Assembly: GCA_965248055.1 (NCBI GenBank)
Contig: CBDFIJ010000004.1
Span: 1,152,001 to 1,216,000, forward strand
Direction of reading: 5' to 3'
DNA: 64,000 nucleotides
Origin: Candidatus Multivoradales bacterium
GTDB lineage: Bacteria; Acidobacteriota; Thermoanaerobaculia; Multivoradales; JAHEKO01
Of the stretch, positions 3,565 through 54,722 are shown one piece after another. The notes under the pieces are model-generated. The model saw only the letters and a list, made by a program, of their open reading frames with translations. It was not told the origin of the DNA and searched no databases. Position 1 is the stretch's first letter, and each line of letters begins with the position of its first letter. The position numbers and the translations under genes were made by a program.

Positions 3565-5061
3565 CTAAAATCCGCGGCGCTGCAGTGTTCTGCGGTCGAT
3601 CCCGAGAAGGCGCGCCGCACGAGACTTGTTTCCGCCGGCGACTGCCAGCACGCGCTTGATGTGGCGCTTTTCGACTGTCTGAAGATCCAAGGGGGTTGGA
3701 CCCAACAGATCAGAAGCTGAACCCAGCAGGGAGCGCACCATTTCGGCGCCCACTTCTGCTTCGCTAGCGAGCGACAGCGCGGCCTCGACCAGATTCTTTA
3801 ACTCACGAACATTGCCCGGATAATCGTGGGCAACCAGTAGTGCGACTGCCTCTGGGGAAAACGTTGACGGTTGCATGTTTTCGCGCTCGCCAAAATTCTT
3901 GGCGAAGTGGCGGACCAAGTAGGGGATGTCCTCACGGCGCTCACGCAACGGAGGGACTCGCACTTCAACCCCTTTTAGGCGGTAGTACAAGTCCTCACGA
4001 AACGACCCGTCGACCAGCTTGGCTTCCAAGTCTTGGTGGGTTGCCGAGACCACCCGAACATCCACCTTGATTGGCCGCATGCCACCCACTCGGGTGATCG
4101 TTCCCTCCTCCAAGGCGCGCAACAGCTTTACCTGTAGTGCTGGCTCCAAGTCGCCAATTTCATCCAGGAACAGCGTTCCTCTGTCGGCCAACTCAAACTG
4201 ACCTCGGCGTTCGCGAACTCCGGTAGCCACCCCGCGCTCGATTCCGAACAACTCGCTCTCCAGCAAGGATTCGGGGAGCGCCGCGCAATTGATCGCCACC
4301 AACGGACCCGACCGACCAGAGAGACCGTGAACCACCCGTGCCATCAGCTCCTTACCGGTTCCGCTTTCGCCACGGACCAAAACACTGATTACCCGAGGGG
4401 CGACCCGGCCGAGGATTTCCATTGCCTCCGCAAGTGGCCGAGCATGGGCTACCACTTGAGTGCCGATGTCCACTTCGGTCCAAGCTGAGCGCAAGGCACG
4501 ATTTTCTTCTTCCAGGGACTGATTGCGCGCCGACAGGGCATTGACCCGCCTCACCCCTGCCACCGCTCGAGCCATCAACACCGCCACCGACTCCAAAAAT
4601 CGACGATCTTCGTCAGAGAAACGAGTGACCCCGCCAGCGCGATCTTCTTTGTCGATCACCGCCAGCATTCCCAAACAATCACCGCCCTGCATCACCGGCG
4701 CCGCGAGCAGATTCTGATGCTCCAATCCAGCCAATTGACCTCGATCCAGTTGTTGGGTCAACCCTTGAGAAAGCGCCCCTTGCCACAAATCGGAAGCCAG
4801 CACAGAGGACAAATCCGGCTGCTTGATTCCCCAGCCAACGTGGGCCAGCGCCCCCGGCACGCCATCGACAATGCCATCCACGCTTGGCTTCGGTGTGGTC
4901 CAAGCAACCGCCGCCGACGGATCCAACACTGAACAAACACGCTCAAGAACCCCTTCTACCAACTCGGGCTCTGGACCGGAGACGTGCAGAGCGAGGTCGT
5001 AGAGAGTCTCCAATTGCAGCGTGCGCCGCTTGTCGCTAAAGGTGACTCCGAACGGACTCAT
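3565..5061 (-). CDS. GAF-AAA+-Fis HTH sigma54-type enhancer-binding protein (GVATGV variant)
   Basis: GESGTGKE Walker A, ESELFG, LFLDEIGD Walker B, FREDLYYRL, YPGNVREL, C-terminal Fis HTH. Confidence 0.93.
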   Translation of the reverse strand: MSPFGVTFSDKRRTLQLETLYDLALHVSGPEPELVEGVLERVCSVLDPSAAVAWTTPKPSVDGIVDGVPGALAHVGWGIKQPDLSSVLASDLWQGALSQGLTQQLDRGQLAGLEHQNLLAAPVMQGGDCLGMLAVIDKEDRAGGVTRFSDEDRRFLESVAVLMARAVAGVRRVNALSARNQSLEEENRALRSAWTEVDIGTQVVAHARPLAEAMEILGRVAPRVISVLVRGESGTGKELMARVVHGLSGRSGPLVAINCAALPESLLESELFGIERGVATGVRERRGQFELADRGTLFLDEIGDLEPALQVKLLRALEEGTITRVGGMRPIKVDVRVVSATHQDLEAKLVDGSFREDLYYRLKGVEVRVPPLRERREDIPYLVRHFAKNFGERENMQPSTFSPEAVALLVAHDYPGNVRELKNLVEAALSLASEAEVGAEMVRSLLGSASDLLGPTPLDLQTVEKRHIKRVLAVAGGNKSRAARLLGIDRRTLQRRGF

Positions 5062-44239: not shown

Positions 44240-44676
44240 GGTCGAGCGATTCTCCCACGGCCCGTGACTGTTTCCCCGCCATTCTGACCCGGCACGCTGC
44301 ACGAAACTTCATTCACGCTGGCAAGAGCTCTGGCGGGAATTTCGTTTCGCTTCTAGCGAGTCTGAAGTCGATGCTCGGCGACTTCAATACATTGCTTGTT
44401 TTTGCCGAGCGACTCGATCTTGAGAGCAGGCGAGGAGTCTCAGGAGGCGTTGAGTTGACTCTCCACCGGAGGGTCGCAGGATAGGTCCCGGCTCCCTTGC
44501 CCGGCTCCCGCCGGCTCGAGACGGGCACGCGCACCGCGGCGCCAATCCCCAGCTATCAGGCCACTTCATTTGTCGAGGACTCCCTTTGCCAACCACGACC
44601 TTGATAGGGTGGGGAAGGAGTCGGAGTGGCAGCACTACCGGCCAATCACCAGCCAAAAGAAAAAGGAAACTGCACC

Positions 44677-45588
44677 GTGTCGAGTACCAACGATTCTCGC
44701 GGATCTCTCTTACTCTGGGGAGTCATTCCCCTTGCTTTGCTCGGGCTGCTCCTAGCCTGGATTGTCACAACCAACCCGCTCGCCAATTTAGCTGGAACTG
44801 AAACGGGCGCAGGTGCCCGTCTGACACCGGCTTTTCTCTGGGGGTTTGGACTCATCGGTCTCTACGTCGGCGTCTTGCCGGTGATGCTGGGTTTGGTGTG
44901 GCGACCCTTCCTAATGCGCCTGGGACGCGCCGGACGCGACTTCGTGCTCGCACTGACGATTGGACTTCTGATCTACCTGGGCATAGACACCGTCGAGGAT
45001 GGGATCGAGACCATGGAAGAAGCGTTGTCCATGGTGACGACTCTGGGATTGTTCTTTGGCCTCGCGATTGCCGCCTATTTTGCCGTCGAAGCGTTCTCGC
45101 GCTGGGTGGCGCGACGCAGCGGCGGCGGAGCCGATTGGACCACAGCAATGCTGATCGCCCTGGGGATTGGACTGCACAACTTCGGCGAAGGTCTGGCGAT
45201 TGGCGCCGCCTACGCACTCGGCGAAATGGCCTTGGGAGCGATCCTGGTGGTGGGCTTTACCCTGCACAACACCACCGAAGGGCTGGCGATTGTCGCACCA
45301 CTTTCCAAAGAAACCGAAGTCGGAATCGGCAAACTGTTGCTCCTGGGATTGATCGCCGGAGGACCCACCATCCTCGGAGCCTGGCTCGGCGGCATGGTGG
45401 TCTCGCCAGTAACCGGCGGCATCGCCTTGGCACTGGGCGCCGGCGCCATCGCCCAAGTGGTGATCCAACTCCTTGGCTCGGTGTCGAAAGATCGTTCGTT
45501 GAAGAGCTTTCTGTCTTCGCCTGCAGTGATCGTCGGATTGGTCGTCGGCGCCGCGCTGATGTTCGTCACCGGAAAAATCGCCGGTTAA
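44677..45588 (+). CDS. ZIP family divalent metal transporter
   Basis: GIGLHNFGEGLAIG and LHNTTEG motifs; AAGGA upstream of GTG 44677. Confidence 0.9.
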   Translation: MSSTNDSRGSLLLWGVIPLALLGLLLAWIVTTNPLANLAGTETGAGARLTPAFLWGFGLIGLYVGVLPVMLGLVWRPFLMRLGRAGRDFVLALTIGLLIYLGIDTVEDGIETMEEALSMVTTLGLFFGLAIAAYFAVEAFSRWVARRSGGGADWTTAMLIALGIGLHNFGEGLAIGAAYALGEMALGAILVVGFTLHNTTEGLAIVAPLSKETEVGIGKLLLLGLIAGGPTILGAWLGGMVVSPVTGGIALALGAGAIAQVVIQLLGSVSKDRSLKSFLSSPAVIVGLVVGAALMFVTGKIAG

Positions 45589-46876: not shown

Positions 46877-47374
46877 ATGCGACGGGCCCTCTCCCATCGA
46901 CCCCGTAGCCGGAAGCTAAATCCCATCGTTTGGGGTCTTGTTCGTCTTTCGGCTTTGGTGTTAGTGGGATTCCACGTCCTGCTTCTTGGACGTCGTATCG
47001 CCGATCTGACCATCGCCGACCCTTGGGTTATTGTTCGCTGGTTGGCCACCGTTGCGCTGTTGTTCGTTGGTTGGCGCTATGTACGAAAAGGCGGCTCTCT
47101 GGTCGCCGGCCGCGGCGCACTGGCGTTTTGGATCGCGGTATTCCTGCTGCACGCGTTTGCCCTTCAGCCAGCGCCGGTACCTTTGGCAGAAAGCACGGTC
47201 AACGTTTGGAGTGTAGGGCTACTGCTGGTGCTTTCCTGGGTGGTTCTCAACGCCCTGCAGACTTCAGTCGAAGCACGTAGATACCATCAAACGGAAGACT
47301 TCTTCCTGCTGTTTCATACCGATCAGCTAATCCATTACTCGGGTCGTCCGCCTCCGATCTCCTTCTCCGCATAG
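46877..47374 (+). CDS. Membrane leader protein ending in RPPP (candidate ribosome-arrest peptide)
   Basis: About 4 hydrophobic segments, then ...HYSGRPPPISFSA*; TG-T-TACTCT -10 box 6 nt before ATG. Confidence 0.7.
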   Translation: MRRALSHRPRSRKLNPIVWGLVRLSALVLVGFHVLLLGRRIADLTIADPWVIVRWLATVALLFVGWRYVRKGGSLVAGRGALAFWIAVFLLHAFALQPAPVPLAESTVNVWSVGLLLVLSWVVLNALQTSVEARRYHQTEDFFLLFHTDQLIHYSGRPPPISFSA

Positions 47375-47453
47375 ACGCGGAACCCCCACCCCAATCAGAC
47401 GAAGGTGTCACCCTCGCGGTGACTGACCGAACGATACTCTTTGGAAGGAGATC
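47356..47453 (+). promoter_or_regulatory. Anti-SD/SD long-range pairing (translational attenuator)
   Basis: GATCTCCTTC (47356-47365) is the exact reverse complement of GAAGGAGATC (47444-47453); inner hairpin GTCACC/GGTGAC 47407-47423. Confidence 0.75.
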
Positions 47454-47456
47454 AAC

Positions 47457-50400
47457 ATGCAGGGCACAACGCCTGCTCTCGACAACGTTTCCCAGTCCTC
47501 AATGCAGTCCCCACTGTTGGAAGCAGTGATGCATCTACCGATTCTCACTACGGTTGTTGCGACCGTATTTTGTCTGGTGTTGTTTCGCCGCTATCGCCAG
47601 CGCGGTGGCCTCCACTTGCTGTGGTGGGCGATCGGCATGGCCACCTACGGCCTTGGTACCCTGACCGAGTCGGCGACCACCCTGTTTGGCTGGAACTCCG
47701 ACGTCTTCAAGCTCTGGTATGTCTTCGGCGCCTTTCTCGGTGGCTATCCACTGGCACAAGGAAGCCTTTACTTGCTGGCTAGGAAACGCCGATTGGCCCA
47801 TCTGTCCGCCATCGTCTGCACCACCGCCATCATCATCGGCGCCATCGCCGTGGCGCTATCCCCTGTCACATTTCCAGGAGTTGACGCACGGCTGTCTGGA
47901 TCCGCTCTGAACTGGCAATGGATTCGCGCTATGACCCCATTTATCAATATCTACTCGGCAATCGTCCTCATTGGAGGTGCTCTGGTGTCCGCTTTTCGTT
48001 TTCGTACCACTCCCGACTTGCGCGGCCGTTACCTCGGCAACATCTTGATCGCTATCGGCGCTTTACTGCCCGGGATCGGCGGCACCATGACTCGCATGGG
48101 TCATGTAGAAGTGCTCTACGTAACCGAGCTGTTGGGTCTGTTGTTTATCTTTGCCGGCTATCGCAAATGCGTCGCCGCACCTCAGCCCGCGACCGAACCC
48201 AAGTCGGCGATAGCGTCAGTTACCGCTGTGCTACTTCTACTGATGAGTCTCGCGAGTCCGCAACTGCTGAGTGCGCAAACTAACGATACGGCTCCTCAAG
48301 GAGAAGGAACTCAGGAAACCGTCGACCAGGACCCTAGGTCGGATAGCGGCGACAACGTCTATTACGGAACCGTGACGGTGACCGCGACCGGCAACGAGTC
48401 CGATACCCATCAGGTCGCTCAACCGGTCACCGTGCTCAAAGATATCGACCTGCGGCTGGCCAACAACGCCGCCGACCTGCTGCGCTGGGAACCCGGAGTC
48501 GATGTTGACGGAGTGGGGGCAGTGCAGGTGCGTCCGGTCATTCGTGGCTTGCGCGGCCTGCGCGTGCTGTTCTTGGAGGACGGCCTGCGGATGAACAACT
48601 CGCGTCGCCAAACTGATTTCGGCGAGATCAGTGGTTTGGTGCCCAATGAGTTGGTCGACCGAATCGAAGTGGTGCGCGGCGCGGCTTCAGTGCTGTACGG
48701 TACCGACGCCATTGGTGGCGTAGTCAACATGATCACCCACCGGCCCAGTGTTGGCTCCGGCTGGGCCGGCAATCTAAGGGTTACCGGTGGCAGCGTCGAC
48801 GACTCGACCAAGGTCACTGCGAGCTTAGCGAAACGAAGCGAGCAGTCATCTTGGTCTAGCACCTTTGGCGTGCGTGATGTTTCGGACTACGAGGCGCCCG
48901 CCGGAACCTTTGGCGATATCAAACTGTTGGAAGACACCTCGGTGCTCGACACCGGGGTCGAGGACAACTTCTTCAAAACCATCTACTCCAGAGACTTGAA
49001 CAGCTCCCACAGCTTGATCCTTTCAGCGCGCGGCTACTCGGGAGAAAACAGCGGATTCGGCTTGGTCGAGCCGTCGCTTTTGGGAGACGACAGCTTTCGC
49101 ATTCGCATCCTCTATCCGGAGCAAGATTTTCAAAAGTTCGTCGCCACCCACCTAGGAACAGATCTCGGTTGGGCCGACACGCTGGAAACCAAGCTCTATA
49201 GCCAAAGCAACGAGCGCATCCTGGTCAACGACATCGGCATCAATATCGGGCCGATCTTTCCCGGCGCTCCCAACTCCTCTGTCGACGCGGACACCGTAAA
49301 CAACACCGATATGGATACCTGGGGCGTCCGCTCTGAAGCCGCCAAAGCAGCGGCCGGAGGGCTCTGGACCTACGGCGTCGAAGCATTCTTCGATGATTCC
49401 TTTAACACCGATTCGTCTGTGACTACGACCACCATTCGTGTCCCCTTTCCGCCTTTCGCGTTTGTCAGCCAAAGCACCGACAACATCGCCAATGCCCCCA
49501 ACGCCACTAACTCTTCAATCGGTGCTTTCGCCCAGTACGAGCGATTGATCGGGGACCGCGCCCATGTCAGTCTTGGCACTCGCTATCAGCAGGTCACGAC
49601 CCAAGCAGAACCGACACCAGATCTGGATGTCACCGGACTGGACTTCGACGATTCCCGTTGGGTCGGCGCTGCGACCCTGCGCTATCAGCTCCAGGACAAC
49701 CTGCAATTGGTCGGTTCGCTGGGAAGTTCCTTCCGCATGCCGAGCATCATCGAGCGCCTGTTCAACGGCCCGACCCCCGAAGGAGCTGGCTTTCAACTTC
49801 TAAACCCAAACCTCAAGTCGGAAACCGGTATCAACTACGACATCGGTCTCAAGTATCGGGGTCGGCGCACCTTTGCCGAGGTCACCTATTTCGAGAATCG
49901 CCTGTCCGACGGTATCTCCCAGCACTTCCTCAGCCCAGCCGACGTTGACGCCTTAGCGCAAGACTTGAAAACCGAAATTGCGCTACTGGGACCCAACGTA
50001 TTTGTGGTTCAGCAACGCAATATTGAAGAACTGACCTACACTGGGTTCGAGCTGGCGGGTGGAATCAACCTGGAAAGTGGAGTGACAGTGGGTGGCAACT
50101 TCTCGCTGCTCGACGCCGATCGCACCGACTCCGCCAACCCACCGACCGGCGAAAGCTACGGCAACAAGACCAACCTGTTCCTCCGCTACGCCCCAGCCAG
50201 CAAGCCGTACTATCTAGAATGGCGTATCCGTCACTCGCCGGAAGATGACTTCCCGCTGGCACCCAACCAAGCCCTGCCCCCAGCAGGCCTCAGACTGCCG
50301 TCTTTGACTGTGCAACAACTGGCCGCCGGTTGGACCTTCAGCGGTGAAGGTCGTCTCGGTCATCAACTCAACCTAGTGGTCGACAACCTGAGCGACGATC

Positions 50401-50483
50401 TCTATTCCGAGTCCTCCAACGCCTCCTTCTTCCGACCACAGCCAGGGAGAGGGGCGCGGGTGAGTTATGGGCTGAGGTTCTAA
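47457..50483 (+). CDS. TonB-dependent receptor (heme-receptor-like) with N-terminal multi-TM domain and internal signal peptide
   Basis: About 7 TMs in the first ~240 aa; plug motifs PVIRG, DGL, IEVVRGAASVLYG.DAIGGVVN; FRMP...NPNL; C-terminal YGLRF. Confidence 0.88.
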   Translation: MQGTTPALDNVSQSSMQSPLLEAVMHLPILTTVVATVFCLVLFRRYRQRGGLHLLWWAIGMATYGLGTLTESATTLFGWNSDVFKLWYVFGAFLGGYPLAQGSLYLLARKRRLAHLSAIVCTTAIIIGAIAVALSPVTFPGVDARLSGSALNWQWIRAMTPFINIYSAIVLIGGALVSAFRFRTTPDLRGRYLGNILIAIGALLPGIGGTMTRMGHVEVLYVTELLGLLFIFAGYRKCVAAPQPATEPKSAIASVTAVLLLLMSLASPQLLSAQTNDTAPQGEGTQETVDQDPRSDSGDNVYYGTVTVTATGNESDTHQVAQPVTVLKDIDLRLANNAADLLRWEPGVDVDGVGAVQVRPVIRGLRGLRVLFLEDGLRMNNSRRQTDFGEISGLVPNELVDRIEVVRGAASVLYGTDAIGGVVNMITHRPSVGSGWAGNLRVTGGSVDDSTKVTASLAKRSEQSSWSSTFGVRDVSDYEAPAGTFGDIKLLEDTSVLDTGVEDNFFKTIYSRDLNSSHSLILSARGYSGENSGFGLVEPSLLGDDSFRIRILYPEQDFQKFVATHLGTDLGWADTLETKLYSQSNERILVNDIGINIGPIFPGAPNSSVDADTVNNTDMDTWGVRSEAAKAAAGGLWTYGVEAFFDDSFNTDSSVTTTTIRVPFPPFAFVSQSTDNIANAPNATNSSIGAFAQYERLIGDRAHVSLGTRYQQVTTQAEPTPDLDVTGLDFDDSRWVGAATLRYQLQDNLQLVGSLGSSFRMPSIIERLFNGPTPEGAGFQLLNPNLKSETGINYDIGLKYRGRRTFAEVTYFENRLSDGISQHFLSPADVDALAQDLKTEIALLGPNVFVVQQRNIEELTYTGFELAGGINLESGVTVGGNFSLLDADRTDSANPPTGESYGNKTNLFLRYAPASKPYYLEWRIRHSPEDDFPLAPNQALPPAGLRLPSLTVQQLAAGWTFSGEGRLGHQLNLVVDNLSDDLYSESSNASFFRPQPGRGARVSYGLRF

Positions 50484-50563: not shown

Positions 50564-51178
50564 TCATTGAACTTTCTGCGCCGAGTCTAGAACCTGGGTT
50601 TGGTCGAGATAGCAATCTGGGTCGTCAGGGGTTTTTTCGCAAAATTCAGCCACCGCCTGGGACAAGTCAGATGACGCAATACGCTCTTTGTCTTTGAAGA
50701 CAGACAGCTTTGCAACCTCGCGGTTGAACGGGAGAATGATTGTCGTCTCGGCACTCTCCTCTATATCAACGAAGTCGCGATCTTCTTCGTCACTCCAAAC
50801 CAATGTCCAACGAGGGTCCCAAAGTGGAATCGAAACGAGGCTAACTCCCTGAACGTCTACTAGTTGTGCCGTGAGCATGGCGGGGTTCCCAATGTGATTG
50901 GGCGCCTCCCCGTAAAGAACCCTCGGGTTCGTGAGCGTTACAAGACCCTCGGCGGCTACGCGCATGTCAACGACCACCACTTTGGCAAAAGCCGTGGACG
51001 CAACCGCACTGGGGTCTTTGGGGCCAACACTCAAAGTGCCGCCATCAATCTGCTGCACAATTGCCGACTCCTGCGGCTGCTGCGCCACGATCCTGCTCTG
51101 ATCACCCTCCTCAGTATCAGAGCAGCCCAAAAGCACCAGCATGGGAATCCAAAGCCCGAATCGATTACACGCTTTCAT
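50564..51178 (-). CDS. Hypothetical lipoprotein
   Basis: MKACNRFGLWIPMLVLLGC lipobox; directly downstream of the peptidase gene. Confidence 0.7.
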   Translation of the reverse strand: MKACNRFGLWIPMLVLLGCSDTEEGDQSRIVAQQPQESAIVQQIDGGTLSVGPKDPSAVASTAFAKVVVVDMRVAAEGLVTLTNPRVLYGEAPNHIGNPAMLTAQLVDVQGVSLVSIPLWDPRWTLVWSDEEDRDFVDIEESAETTIILPFNREVAKLSVFKDKERIASSDLSQAVAEFCEKTPDDPDCYLDQTQVLDSAQKVQ

Positions 51179-51225
51179 TGTTCTAACACCTCTCCAGTTT
51201 GCTGAACATCTGCTATACCTACTCG

Positions 51226-53250
51226 TCACGGTAGGGCGTCTATGACCGCCTGAATCCTGCGCTCGTCGGCAGCGCGCGGCACACGATTGTCAACCATGCG
51301 GTCGTTTTCGACATCTGCTGCCCCCGGCGCTGGCGCGTGATCAAGGCGAAAGAACTGACTCCCGCTACTGACACGCGTTGACGTAAACCCCAAGCACGAA
51401 CTGCGAAGACCACCGAGCGCGTCAGCCTGGCAAGCAGTCTGTGCTGCTGAACTACCAGCAGCTTGGGGACCATACAGATTCGGGTTGGTGCCGGTCTGAA
51501 AGTAGCCGCCATCGCAACAATATTCGTCCGCCAATCCGAACGGGCTGTGCCCGGTCTCATGCCGCACGGTATTTGTCGCCCCTGGTTCAGTACTGAAAAT
51601 ACCTCCACTGGCACAGTCACGCAAATTATCTGTGTGCAGCAACACTCCACTGTCCGAAAACGTGTAGTCGGTACTCCAGTTCGAAGGCGCAGTATGGCAG
51701 GGCGACCCGGCGGTAAAGCCATGCGCATCGCCTCGGTCCTGCGCGATCCAGAAGTTGAACCGCCCCTGATTACGCAGAAACAACTCATCTGACAAGAATG
51801 CCGTCTGGACCACGTCATGCACGTCGTCCGTGAAAGCCGTCACATTGGCGCTGCTGTAGTTGTCACTGTCAGGGATGAAAACTAAGTCCATTGCTTCGGC
51901 GGTTGCGCGGTGCCGCAACACCGGCACTGCCCGGCCGCGTGCAGGCGGTCCAATGATCGAACTACGGCTACCGGTGGTGGCGGATACACCTCGTTCTTCT
52001 GCATTGCACTGGTAACTAAAAGTCCCGTTGCTCGAAGCGTGAAGACGGATTTCGCAAGTCGTCGCATCGGTGCAGCTCTGAACATTGCCAGTACCACCCG
52101 CCGGCTGACGTAGCTCAATACGGTCGGCAACGACCGGGCGCATATTCGCATCGAGGGCATCAGCGGTGAATGTCACCGTGTCACCAGCTTGCGGCCAAAT
52201 CGGCGAATGCAGGCAACGCACGTAGAGGCGCGGACGATTATGGATCCGAATGCGCACCTGCATACGAGCCCTATCACTTTGATTGCCACTCACATCAATG
52301 CGTGAGCCTACATCGAGGATGTCGCCACACCTCCCAGTTGCCTCTCCAGTGATGTTGCAGGTGCTCGGATTCAGATCAAGTTGCAGTACCCGCCCAGCTC
52401 CTGGTTGCACGTCGACTGTGTCGTCGGGATTAAGAAAGCCGTCAGAATCCATGATTCGAATGTCGATCGGAATTGTTCTGCGACTCAGGTTCACCCAACG
52501 AGTAAAACGCCAGTAAGCAGCGACATCATCTTGGTTGCCAAACTGTGTGCTTTCGCCGCGCGACTCGTTGGATTGCTCGGTACCGTCGATACCGATTCGT
52601 CCATAAAAGTCAGCTGACGATCCACACCACCAAAAGGTGTCATCGACGCACTCGAGCGTGGTCAGCCGTTCGACCACGACCTCGACTTCACCGAGTCGTG
52701 CTGGGGTGACGTCAATTCGAAACCGTATTCTCGCTCGGTCGTCGCTCGTACCGCTCGACGTCAAAGTCGCTCCACACGCACCAGAGGCCCCGCCGCTTAT
52801 CGTGCAGCCGCCCAAATTCACACTCAGGTCCAGGTTCCTTCCACTACCGGAAGTGATGTCAACGTGGTCATCCCCGAACCGCAGCCCTCCGTCGGAATCC
52901 CATATTTCAATGCGGACGTTGATGTTGCTGGAAGACACCGCGCGTCGGAATGTCCAGTTCGGTGAAATATCCGCGCTATCGTCAATCGAACCACTCGAAA
53001 AAGACACACCGTCGATAACAACCTTCGAGTAGAAGTCCCCGGCCGAACCACACCACCACAGAGTTTCGTCAACACACTCGAGCTCTTCGACACGTTGAAT
53101 GGTCACTGTGACTTCGTCGTCGGCTGCCGCCATGGACGGAAAAGCTAACCCCCACAGGACAAGTGCCGTCCAAGCACGGTACCAAAGAACTCTTCTCAAG
53201 GCGCAAGACGGAAGTGGTTCTTTGCTCACTGCTTCATCCCTCAAAATCAA
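51226..53250 (-). CDS. Secreted protein with two tandem C2-like repeats and an M64-like zinc peptidase domain
   Basis: Signal peptide; repeat LECVD.T.WWCGS..DFY....IDG...I.DSDG...DD.VD twice; HETGHSPFGLADEY; start uncertain. Confidence 0.7.
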   Translation of the reverse strand: MILRDEAVSKEPLPSCALRRVLWYRAWTALVLWGLAFPSMAAADDEVTVTIQRVEELECVDETLWWCGSAGDFYSKVVIDGVSFSSGSIDDSADISPNWTFRRAVSSSNINVRIEIWDSDGGLRFGDDHVDITSGSGRNLDLSVNLGGCTISGGASGACGATLTSSGTSDDRARIRFRIDVTPARLGEVEVVVERLTTLECVDDTFWWCGSSADFYGRIGIDGTEQSNESRGESTQFGNQDDVAAYWRFTRWVNLSRRTIPIDIRIMDSDGFLNPDDTVDVQPGAGRVLQLDLNPSTCNITGEATGRCGDILDVGSRIDVSGNQSDRARMQVRIRIHNRPRLYVRCLHSPIWPQAGDTVTFTADALDANMRPVVADRIELRQPAGGTGNVQSCTDATTCEIRLHASSNGTFSYQCNAEERGVSATTGSRSSIIGPPARGRAVPVLRHRATAEAMDLVFIPDSDNYSSANVTAFTDDVHDVVQTAFLSDELFLRNQGRFNFWIAQDRGDAHGFTAGSPCHTAPSNWSTDYTFSDSGVLLHTDNLRDCASGGIFSTEPGATNTVRHETGHSPFGLADEYCCDGGYFQTGTNPNLYGPQAAGSSAAQTACQADALGGLRSSCLGFTSTRVSSGSQFFRLDHAPAPGAADVENDRMVDNRVPRAADERRIQAVIDALP

Positions 53251-53606: not shown

Positions 53607-54722
53607 TCACGACACGATCTGGGGGTCCGCGAGCCGATAGCTGGTACTCCTACCACCGCCGGAGTTCTTCGCCAAGATTCCCCGCTCCAACAACTCTCTA
53701 ATATCGCGGAGCGCGGAGTCGGTCGAACACTTGGCGAGCTTGGCGTATTTCGACGTCGTGAGATGACCCTCGAAATCGTCGAGCATTCGGTTGATGATGC
53801 TTCGTTGGCGCTGGTTGACCGGGTTGCGATTGATCTGTTGCCAAAGTTTCGCTTTGTGGAGCACTGAGCCCAGCGCCTTTTCTGCGTTTTCAATCGCGCG
53901 ATCGAGGCACCGCAGAAACCAGGCGATCCAAGCCGTAATGTCGAGGCTGCCGCGCTGCGCCGATTCGAGCTGGAAATAGTATTCCTTGCGCTGTTCGGCG
54001 ATCGCGGACGACATACTGTAGAAGCGATCTTTTGTACCATCCGCTTGCGACAGCGCCATCTCGGCAATCGCCCGAGCGATACGTCCGTTGCCATCCTCAA
54101 AGGGATGGATAGTTACGAACCAAAAGTGTCCAACGGCAGCCTTGAGCACTGGATCGATGGTTGATCGCCCCGCAAACCACTCGAGAAAGTGTTTCATCTC
54201 ACTTTCAAGGCGCTCCGCATCCGGTGCTTGAAAATGCACCATCTCCTTGCCAACCGACCCGGAGACCACCTGCATCGGACCCGTTTCTCCGGTGCGCCAG
54301 GCACCAACCGCTACGCGATGCATACCGCTGTGTCCGGCTGGGAAAAGTGTCGCGTTCCAAGCGAACAAACGCTCCGCCGTAAGCGGTTTATCGAAATCAC
54401 GGGTCGCATCGATCGTCAGATCAACGACACCATCGACTTCCCGCCGGGACTCGACCAAACCTGCAACATTCAGCCCCAACTGGCGAGCGATCGACGAACG
54501 AACCTCATCGGAGTTCAGGTTCTCCCCCTCGATCGCCGAAGAAGTGACGACCTCTTCGGTAAGCGCAATCAGGATCGCTTCTTCCTGCAGATCAAATCCC
54601 AGAGCCTCCATCTTTCCCAGGTGCTTTCCTTGCCTATGACGCACCGCCGCCAAGGCTCCAGAGAGCGCTTCGCTATCCCATATCAGCTGCGGCCATTGAG
54701 GCCGTTGGTGGATGTAGGACAT
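53607..54722 (-). CDS. Fic family protein (DUF4172 N-terminus, C-terminal HTH)
   Basis: YIHQRPQWP start, HPFEDGNGRIAR, C-terminal ALRDI..L...GGRSTSY. Confidence 0.95.
   Translation of the reverse strand: MSYIHQRPQWPQLIWDSEALSGALAAVRHRQGKHLGKMEALGFDLQEEAILIALTEEVVTSSAIEGENLNSDEVRSSIARQLGLNVAGLVESRREVDGVVDLTIDATRDFDKPLTAERLFAWNATLFPAGHSGMHRVAVGAWRTGETGPMQVVSGSVGKEMVHFQAPDAERLESEMKHFLEWFAGRSTIDPVLKAAVGHFWFVTIHPFEDGNGRIARAIAEMALSQADGTKDRFYSMSSAIAEQRKEYYFQLESAQRGSLDITAWIAWFLRCLDRAIENAEKALGSVLHKAKLWQQINRNPVNQRQRSIINRMLDDFEGHLTTSKYAKLAKCSTDSALRDIRELLERGILAKNSGGGRSTSYRLADPQIVS

Follow-up and report, generated by a model that had tools for sequence, protein, structure and literature searches.

One reading frame for two membranes: a seven-helix membrane domain fused to a TonB-dependent receptor as a probable polyprotein in Multivoradales

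Can an inner-membrane protein carry a receptor of the outer membrane as its C-terminal part? The question is raised by a locus in a stretch of 64,000 nucleotides (nt) from Candidatus Multivoradales bacterium (Acidobacteriota; GenBank assembly GCA_965248055.1, contig CBDFIJ010000004.1, positions 1,152,001 to 1,216,000 of the forward strand), hereafter called the window. An initial annotation had proposed that one open reading frame (ORF) joins a seven-transmembrane-helix (7TM) domain, an internal signal peptide and a TonB-dependent receptor (TBDR). This layout was borne out, and all sequence items listed in its favour were found to be present. The fusion gene is natural and recurrent, and the ORF is probably a polyprotein that would yield two proteins for two different membranes.

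Layout and recurrence of the fused gene

The gene runs as a single uninterrupted frame up to its stop codon (Table 1), which demonstrates its structure. Its start was placed at the ATG, no earlier start codon being present in the frame; GGAAGGAG is located 7 nt 5' of it. In the AlphaFold2 (AF2) model of the full-length protein, two confident modules were separated by a low-confidence stretch at residues 246-300, inside which only one short helix (253-263) was seen. The first module comprised seven helices within residues 27-239, as against the run at about 25-238 that had been annotated. The second module consisted, as claimed, of a polar linker, a plug and a barrel with a terminal Phe. The plug scored 71.5 bits with PF07715 (cut-off 23.9) and the barrel matched PF00593 with an E value of 1.2e-34, with modelled strands extending from residue 435 to 1007. 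The last residue was also Phe in 50 of 69 long fused homologs. The segment GTVTVTATG, which we take to be a TonB box, lies in a region that is 85% conserved; its residues T309 and A310 were invariant in 63 homologs. The FRMP and NPNL motifs were read directly, and the annotated lack of a His between them was seen again. Plug, barrel, TonB-box-like segment, terminal Phe and FRAP/NPNL-type box, a domain content that is demonstrated here, are those of ordinary TBDRs. Such receptors, however, begin with their signal peptide, whereas here the signal sits at residues 249-273, behind a membrane domain of 248 residues.

Conservation, taken as majority-residue identity in 63 fused homologs, reached 76% in the 7TM domain, 81% in the plug and 66% in the barrel, and 28-37% in the linker and signal. 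These values indicate that the fusion layout is more than chance.

Contigs from three Logan runs of one sample spanned positions 47400-49000 at depths of 21-65, with 0 differences and 0 gaps. Since these separately assembled contigs are identical, an assembly slip at the junction is excluded. The N-terminal 248 residues were then used for a search of 41 related genomes; the domain was found in 18, including the window's own, and 18 places in 17 relatives were read. The frame was unbroken across the junction in the genomes of eight of the 17 relatives (G001, G017, G003, G015, G012, G009, G023 and G011) and open up to the contig end in G035 and in a second contig of G007. G013 and G024 showed an in-frame stop and, behind it, a Shine-Dalgarno (SD) sequence and an ATG. 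In G004 and G020 the 7TM gene and the receptor gene overlap by ATGA, and in G010 and G005 no receptor was seen behind the 7TM gene. At two of the 18 places the junction could not be decided, as the contig ends there.

When 185,579 species genomes were scanned, 409 stretches proved to encode a relative, and the best 80 of the 409 were read. A receptor lay behind the 7TM gene in 27 of these 80: 13 were completely fused, four were fused up to the contig end, three were separated by an in-frame stop and seven were in another frame. The genomic total amounted to 20 fused loci (15 complete, G012 followed only to residue 1008, and four reaching the contig end). In 10 loci among the relatives the two halves were split, either by an in-frame stop or with the genes overlapping at ATGA. 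The fusion that the initial annotation had wished to see in independent genomes was thereby found, and the relatives do not uniformly carry two separate genes.

Within a large protein collection drawing on NCBI, ENA, JGI and Logan sources, 72 of 74 proteins of 554-1764 amino acids (aa) with the 7TM domain carried Plug or TBDR Pfam domains; named members of this set were labelled merely 'TonB-dependent receptor'. The sequences at the junction differed between the window, G001 (same genus) and the proteins P0153-P0155 (67-70% identical), all of which are fused. A tree of the 7TM domain required at least four changes between fused and split forms among 30 rows with the receptor downstream; the earliest-branching rows of this group are fused, in a tree that is weakly resolved. 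No published description of such a fusion was found in a search that reached few subscription journals.

Table 1. Positions of the fused gene, its parts, the upstream leader and associated loci (window coordinates unless a locus is named)
Feature	Position	Strand	Basis
Fused ORF, 1008 aa and stop	47457..50483	+	ORF list, translation
7TM inner-membrane domain, residues 19-239, uncharacterised family	47511..48173	+	AF2, conservation
Short cytoplasmic linker (predicted), residues 240-248, AAPQPATEP	48174..48200	+	Direct reading; low model confidence from residue 246
Internal Sec-type signal peptide K249...LSA273, predicted cleavage A273/Q274	48201..48275	+	Direct reading, heuristic
Polar acidic N-terminal linker of predicted mature receptor, residues 274-303	48276..48365	+	pLDDT 30-46
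TonB-box-like segment GTVTVTATG, residues 304-312	48366..48392	+	Direct reading
Plug, residues 319-422	48411..48722	+	Pfam PF07715, E 9.7e-20
Beta-barrel, residues 431-1008, terminal Phe	48747..50480	+	PF00593 540-978, AF2 strands
FRMP...NPNL box, F759-L786, no His between motifs	49731..49814	+	Direct reading, homolog patterns
up165, 165 aa, about four transmembrane helices, candidate RAPP-like translation-arrest leader	46877..47374	+	ORF; no Pfam match
R157-P-P-P160 codons CGT CCG CCT CCG, proposed stall site	47345..47356	+	Tail comparison
Anti-SD segment GATCTCCTTCT directly after RPPP codons	47356..47366	+	Minimum-free-energy fold
SD region GGAAGGAGATC of fused ORF	47443..47453	+	Direct reading, pairing
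HmuY-adjoining loci	L092 5644-6756; L098 814-1791; L074/L076/L085 ~3750-4716 (-)		Neighbour reading
pLDDT, predicted local distance difference test.

The junction and its proposed processing

The junction carries the signal-like segment with a cleavage-type site that had been annotated, from K249 to LSA273/Q274. When the 63 aligned fusions were scored with a heuristic of our own, an uncharged run of 14-26 residues (median 19) was found in all 63, a net-positive n-region in 51, and a small -3/-1 site in all 63, with a small residue at position -1 that was Ala in 56. The sequence of the linker and signal is thus poorly conserved across these fusions, but its character is retained. In the split relatives the homologous segment is an ordinary N-terminal signal.

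The positively charged loops RRYRQRGG, ARKRR, RFRTTPDLRGR and YRK, read directly, assign an N-out, C-in orientation to the 7TM domain by the positive-inside rule. A C-in upstream domain followed by an n-h-c signal segment in N-in, C-out orientation is the predicted arrangement, and it is the topology that cleavage would require. In the mechanism proposed, the ribosome would make the seven-helix inner-membrane protein, inserted N-out, C-in, and translation would run on via the short cytoplasmic linker into the Sec-type signal, inserted N-in, C-out. Signal peptidase I would cut after LSA273, by which the mature TBDR (N-terminus QTNDTAPQ) would be freed to the periplasm and built into the outer membrane; the 7TM protein and the spent signal helix would remain in the inner membrane. 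The 7TM protein and the receptor would act in one uptake pathway. The cut by signal peptidase that the initial annotation had put forward is thus consistent with the topology and the signal features, and neither an indel at the junction nor a uniform two-gene arrangement in relatives was found; the cleavage itself stays a prediction.

The order of the two halves served as a natural control. Wherever the end of the 7TM domain could be recognised, in 70 fused proteins, this domain was N-terminal. In 31 further loci of Gemmatimonadota and Vicinamibacteria (according to the record labels), an orthologous receptor lay directly upstream of a stand-alone 7TM gene, with receptor identities of 36-40% in Gemmatimonadota and about 25% in Vicinamibacteria, and this receptor-first order was fused in none of the 31. 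Fusion is therefore restricted to the order that the topology permits.

A comparable case is reportedly FbcH of Bradyrhizobium japonicum, a cytochrome b/c1 polyprotein said to have been described by Thony-Meyer and Hennecke in about 1989-1991 and to be cut into two working proteins. It is likewise reported to combine a multi-helix inner-membrane protein, an internal signal and an exported partner in one ORF. Both FbcH products, however, reportedly belong to one inner-membrane complex, whereas here the second product would be an outer-membrane barrel, which has to pass through the periplasm, and the first an uncharacterised 7TM protein.

Several points weigh against the polyprotein. Cleavage, topology and localisation are predicted from sequence rules and from our heuristic. 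The three Logan runs represent one sample, which is perhaps the window's own source, and so do not count as independent support. Moreover, before the signal an SD-like sequence with a start codon is retained in nine of the 20 fused loci; in those nine the receptor may be made separately too, and the fusion may reflect a stop codon whose loss was tolerated, not a selected design.

The last point leads to neutral read-through, in which the stop of the 7TM gene was lost, an internal start supplies most of the working receptor and the long product is a mere by-product. As an alternative to the polyprotein, we consider it improbable but worth keeping in mind. The SD-like sequence and ATG or GTG just before the signal in the nine loci speak for it, but no in-frame ATG, GTG or TTG was found before the signal core in four of the 20 fused loci (the window, G001, L039 and L096), and the sole in-frame GTG and ATG at the window's junction lie inside the hydrophobic core, without an SD sequence. 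Likewise, a Met is present in the linker of 33 of 70 fused proteins, but absent from that of the other 37. The split forms with an ATGA overlap or a short gap show that a two-gene design works, and the repeated changes between fused and split forms on the tree would also suit neutral read-through; for the long product, however, insertion and cutting would follow unchanged rules. With no internal start in the window's genus, the receptor would be made there only via the polyprotein, while other lineages may use both routes, the polyprotein and a separate start. The 1:1 ratio of products that had been suggested would accordingly apply only to the four loci without an internal start, the window among them, and not to the nine that keep an SD sequence and a start.

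Less probable still is an uncleaved fusion, in which the signal-like helix would be an eighth membrane helix and the receptor would stay tethered to the inner membrane. Apart from the predictive nature of the cleavage, the argument for it is the Leu at position -3 in the window, where Ala is the commonest residue. The residue at -1, however, is small in every aligned fusion, and the same segment serves as a plain N-terminal signal in split relatives. The receptor also retains its TonB box, full plug, full barrel and C-terminal aromatic residue, which make sense only in the outer membrane, and in the window only about 30 residues lie between the cut site and the TonB box.

A frameshift in sequencing or assembly that merged two adjacent ordinary genes, the caveat of the initial annotation, was rejected as extremely unlikely: an out-of-frame ATG at 48167 (reading MRRRT) and a TAG at 48211 do exist and split two-gene forms occur in relatives, but the ATG lacks an SD sequence, as had been noted, the two codons received no support as parts of genes, the contigs of all three runs are identical over the junction, G001 and P0153-P0155 are fused through different junctions that lack Met, and the fusion recurs in 20 loci and in 72 of the 74 long proteins, which are database clusters from several sources.

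If the polyprotein is cleaved as proposed, an outer-membrane barrel would normally start out as the C-terminal part of a protein of the inner membrane. Co-translational targeting followed by release through signal peptidase would then be an unusual route of outer-membrane biogenesis, and the locus a natural test case for it.

The seven-helix domain, the receptor and their partnership

Modelled alone, the 7TM domain gave a pLDDT of 88.7 and a predicted template modelling score of 0.84, with helices at residues 27-49, 52-77, 81-107 (kinked), 111-134, 154-182, 186-212 and 217-239, the same as in the full-length model. Its mean column identity was 79% in 18 relatives. In a library clustered at 50% identity, 1323 representatives were found at E<=1e-3, and the family comprises at least 7484 clusters of 118-385 aa; the 120 that were listed are all unnamed and have no Pfam assignment. 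The first 248 residues had no Pfam match even at E<=1 and no NCBIfam match, and no relative of solved structure was found by sequence (best E 1.3). Foldseek gave only generic bundles resembling G-protein-coupled receptors (GPCRs), with E values of 7.8e-3 or higher, and VIA gave Z scores of 12.5-15.6 to GPCR-like bundles, a range flagged as common for helical bundles. Transporters of the PnuC or SWEET type were not among the 50 fold matches listed, although such a kinship may exist. A candidate internal duplication (3+1+3 helices) was dropped when hhalign comparison of the halves gave E values of 0.42-0.84.

The 7TM protein is most likely an inner-membrane component for the import carried out by the receptor, perhaps a permease and less likely a sensor. 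A sensor akin to the 7TM domains of histidine kinases, reporting on a periplasmic ligand delivered by the receptor, is the alternative with the most in its favour, although we would not expect it to be correct. Four of 10 distant family members had sub-threshold matches to HisKA_7TM (PF16927; best E 3.5e-4, 20.9 against 28.6 bits), but the 7TM domain of the window had none at E<=1. In about 24 Gemmatimonadota loci the receptor-7TM pair has a histidine kinase gene and that of a LuxR-type response regulator in front of it, but no adjacent two-component genes were observed in the Thermoanaerobaculia loci. The N-terminal domain of the kinase and the 7TM protein have a motif like RY[RH]KPYFxWW in common, but hhalign comparison with neighbouring kinase N-domains was not significant (probabilities of 2.5% and 19%). 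The fold resembles receptor-type bundles; the 7TM protein, however, has no cytoplasmic output domain. Homology between the 7TM domain and the membrane domain of the Gemmatimonadota kinase was rejected, the motif being suggestive and the profile comparison not significant. This kinase consists of a multi-helix N-domain, GAF, HisKA_3 and HATPase_c (e.g. L082 486-2572, L094 144-1967 and L092 2203-4155).

By sequence, the closest solved relatives of the receptor were CirA, PhuR and ShuA, with alignments over the plug, and its best NCBIfam model was TIGR01785 (heme/hemoglobin receptors). This best-scoring family and the HmuY link described below suggest a heme-like ligand or a chelated metal. A gene for a CcmB-type heme exporter (Pfam CcmB, E 5.4e-27) was seen a few kb downstream in six loci (e.g. 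L055 9012-9692), which may be coincidence.

The 7TM and receptor genes are neighbours in three lineages, and both gene orders were seen. In the Gemmatimonadota protein P0218, the 7TM domain is followed by a lipoprotein-type signal (LSAC) and a HmuY-family domain, and in five Gemmatimonadota loci HmuY-family genes adjoin the stand-alone 7TM gene (Table 1); the gene order in L092 is kinase, regulator, 7TM, HmuY, receptor. These arrangements resemble the HmuY-HmuR system (HmuY, PF14064) in that the Gemmatimonadota 7TM is fused or adjacent to HmuY genes and to receptors of the CarboxypepD_reg type; they differ from the window, which contains no HmuY gene. Apart from the leader, the receptor, HmuY and the two-component genes, no other convincing conserved neighbour was found among the relatives' loci.

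The fusion suggests that TBDRs have a new family of partners. Like a Rosetta stone, it links TonB-dependent and HmuY-type uptake with a very large 7TM family that has no name, and it makes the 7TM protein a concrete candidate for the inner-membrane step of uptake in phyla that are abundant in soil and sediment.

Two further observations concern the 7TM family. The proteins P0220 and P0221 (1123-1147 aa) consist of a divergent 7TM domain (51-54% identity), an internal signal and a CarboxypepD_reg-Plug-barrel receptor; this fusion probably arose independently. In L083 (3789-4829), from a bin labelled Saprospiraceae, the 7TM gene lies behind an OmpL-like porin (BBP2, E 1.3e-69) and an ammonium transporter, with no TonB receptor; L083 forms the longest branch in the 7TM tree.

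The upstream leader and the surrounding genes

The ORF up165 lies on the same strand as the fused gene and is separated from it by 82 nt. Of its 24 homologs, 20 lie ahead of a 7TM gene and four, in Vicinamibacteria, ahead of a receptor-7TM pair. Their tails are variable, but carry the motif R[P/A]PP in 23 of 24 homologs and LPPP in one. Between motif and stop, the distance is 1-6 residues in every homolog, and in 22 the motif lies 28-38 residues past the last hydrophobic window. The latter spacing roughly matches the ribosomal exit tunnel in length. As a background, 2480 ORFs from these loci yielded 40 with the motif, the leaders being counted in.

Base pairing between 47356-47366 and 47443-47453 is shown by the minimum-free-energy fold, with 11 pairs and -18.6 kcal/mol. 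In the 20 loci, the matched pairs of leader and SD segments gave -19.77 kcal/mol, against -17.82 kcal/mol for mismatched pairs; only 16 of 5000 permutations equalled the matched pairs.

RAPP-type arrest leaders are established (PMC10951233; PMC10987492), the second report naming RPPP among the RAPP-like motifs searched, and RAPP leaders upstream of TonB receptors are known, with CruR-BfrG as the studied case (PMC9426467; PMC12992588). The Bordetella pertussis operon cruR-bfrG(crtA)-bp2921 likewise has a leader ORF that carries an export or membrane signal and a C-terminal RAPP-type motif, a TonB-dependent transporter and an inner-membrane protein (PMC9426467; PMC12914433). CruR, however, belongs to the DUF2946 proteins, carries a CXXC copper site and acts through Rho termination, whereas up165 has about four helices, mostly RPPP in its homologs, no Pfam family and a proposed masking of the SD; and the membrane partner in Bordetella is a PepSY_TM protein, whereas here it is an unrelated 7TM domain fused to the receptor.

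By these features, up165 is likely to be a new multi-helix arrest-peptide leader, mostly of the RPPP type, for which stalling is predicted. The mRNA after the RPPP codons would mask the ribosome-binding site of the polyprotein until a stalled ribosome covers the anti-SD segment, and an upstream membrane protein would in this way control translation of the polyprotein. The unmasking of one ribosome-binding site would explain the fusion, or tight coupling, of the two proteins. With such a leader, the arrest peptides acting on TonB receptors would gain a multi-helix representative of the RPPP type. A promoter scan revealed no promoter-like site, and the terminator-like sites fall inside genes. 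No RNA runs were listed among the public runs with matching sequence.

A wider reading of the locus is offered tentatively, as one that may well be wrong. The 7TM family would be the missing inner-membrane component of a widespread TonB uptake system for heme-like compounds or metal chelates in Acidobacteriota and Gemmatimonadota, and in Thermoanaerobaculia it would be made together with its receptor as an obligate two-membrane polyprotein. A four-helix, force- or ligand-sensing RPPP leader would switch this polyprotein on, and selection for such control through one ribosome-binding site would account for the fusion or translational coupling of the two proteins. The following observations argue, like those listed earlier, against the main reading of the locus. 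The fold matches of the 7TM domain give no functional lead. The score with TIGR01785 was 203.9 bits, below the cut-off of 316.85. A conserved His between the FRAP and NPNL boxes is a feature of heme receptors, and it was seen between FRxP and NPxL in none of the 40 homologs that matched the pattern, the other 29 of the 69 examined lying outside it. No riboswitch or other Rfam element was found at gathering thresholds in the window and seven related loci. The fold of the leader region had a z-score of just -1.82, and the codons for Pro, being rich in C, promote pairing with whatever SD sequence is present.

The remaining genes around the fused gene in the window, namely a ZIP-like gene, a gene for a metallo-beta-lactamase-fold protein and the downstream genes, were not conserved in the relatives' loci. 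The first (44626-45588, +), two genes upstream, encodes a membrane protein of 320 aa with a sub-threshold ZIP match (19.8 against 35.1 bits). Downstream, a protein of 221 aa without family (50564-51229, -) is followed by a secreted protein of 674 aa (51226-53250, -) with two similar N-terminal repeats and a weakly M64-peptidase-like C-terminal part (E 0.0012), and neither of these two genes was found near the module in relatives. A further gene (53607-54722, -) encodes a Fic/DOC family protein with DUF4172 and a DIP2311-like C-terminal domain.

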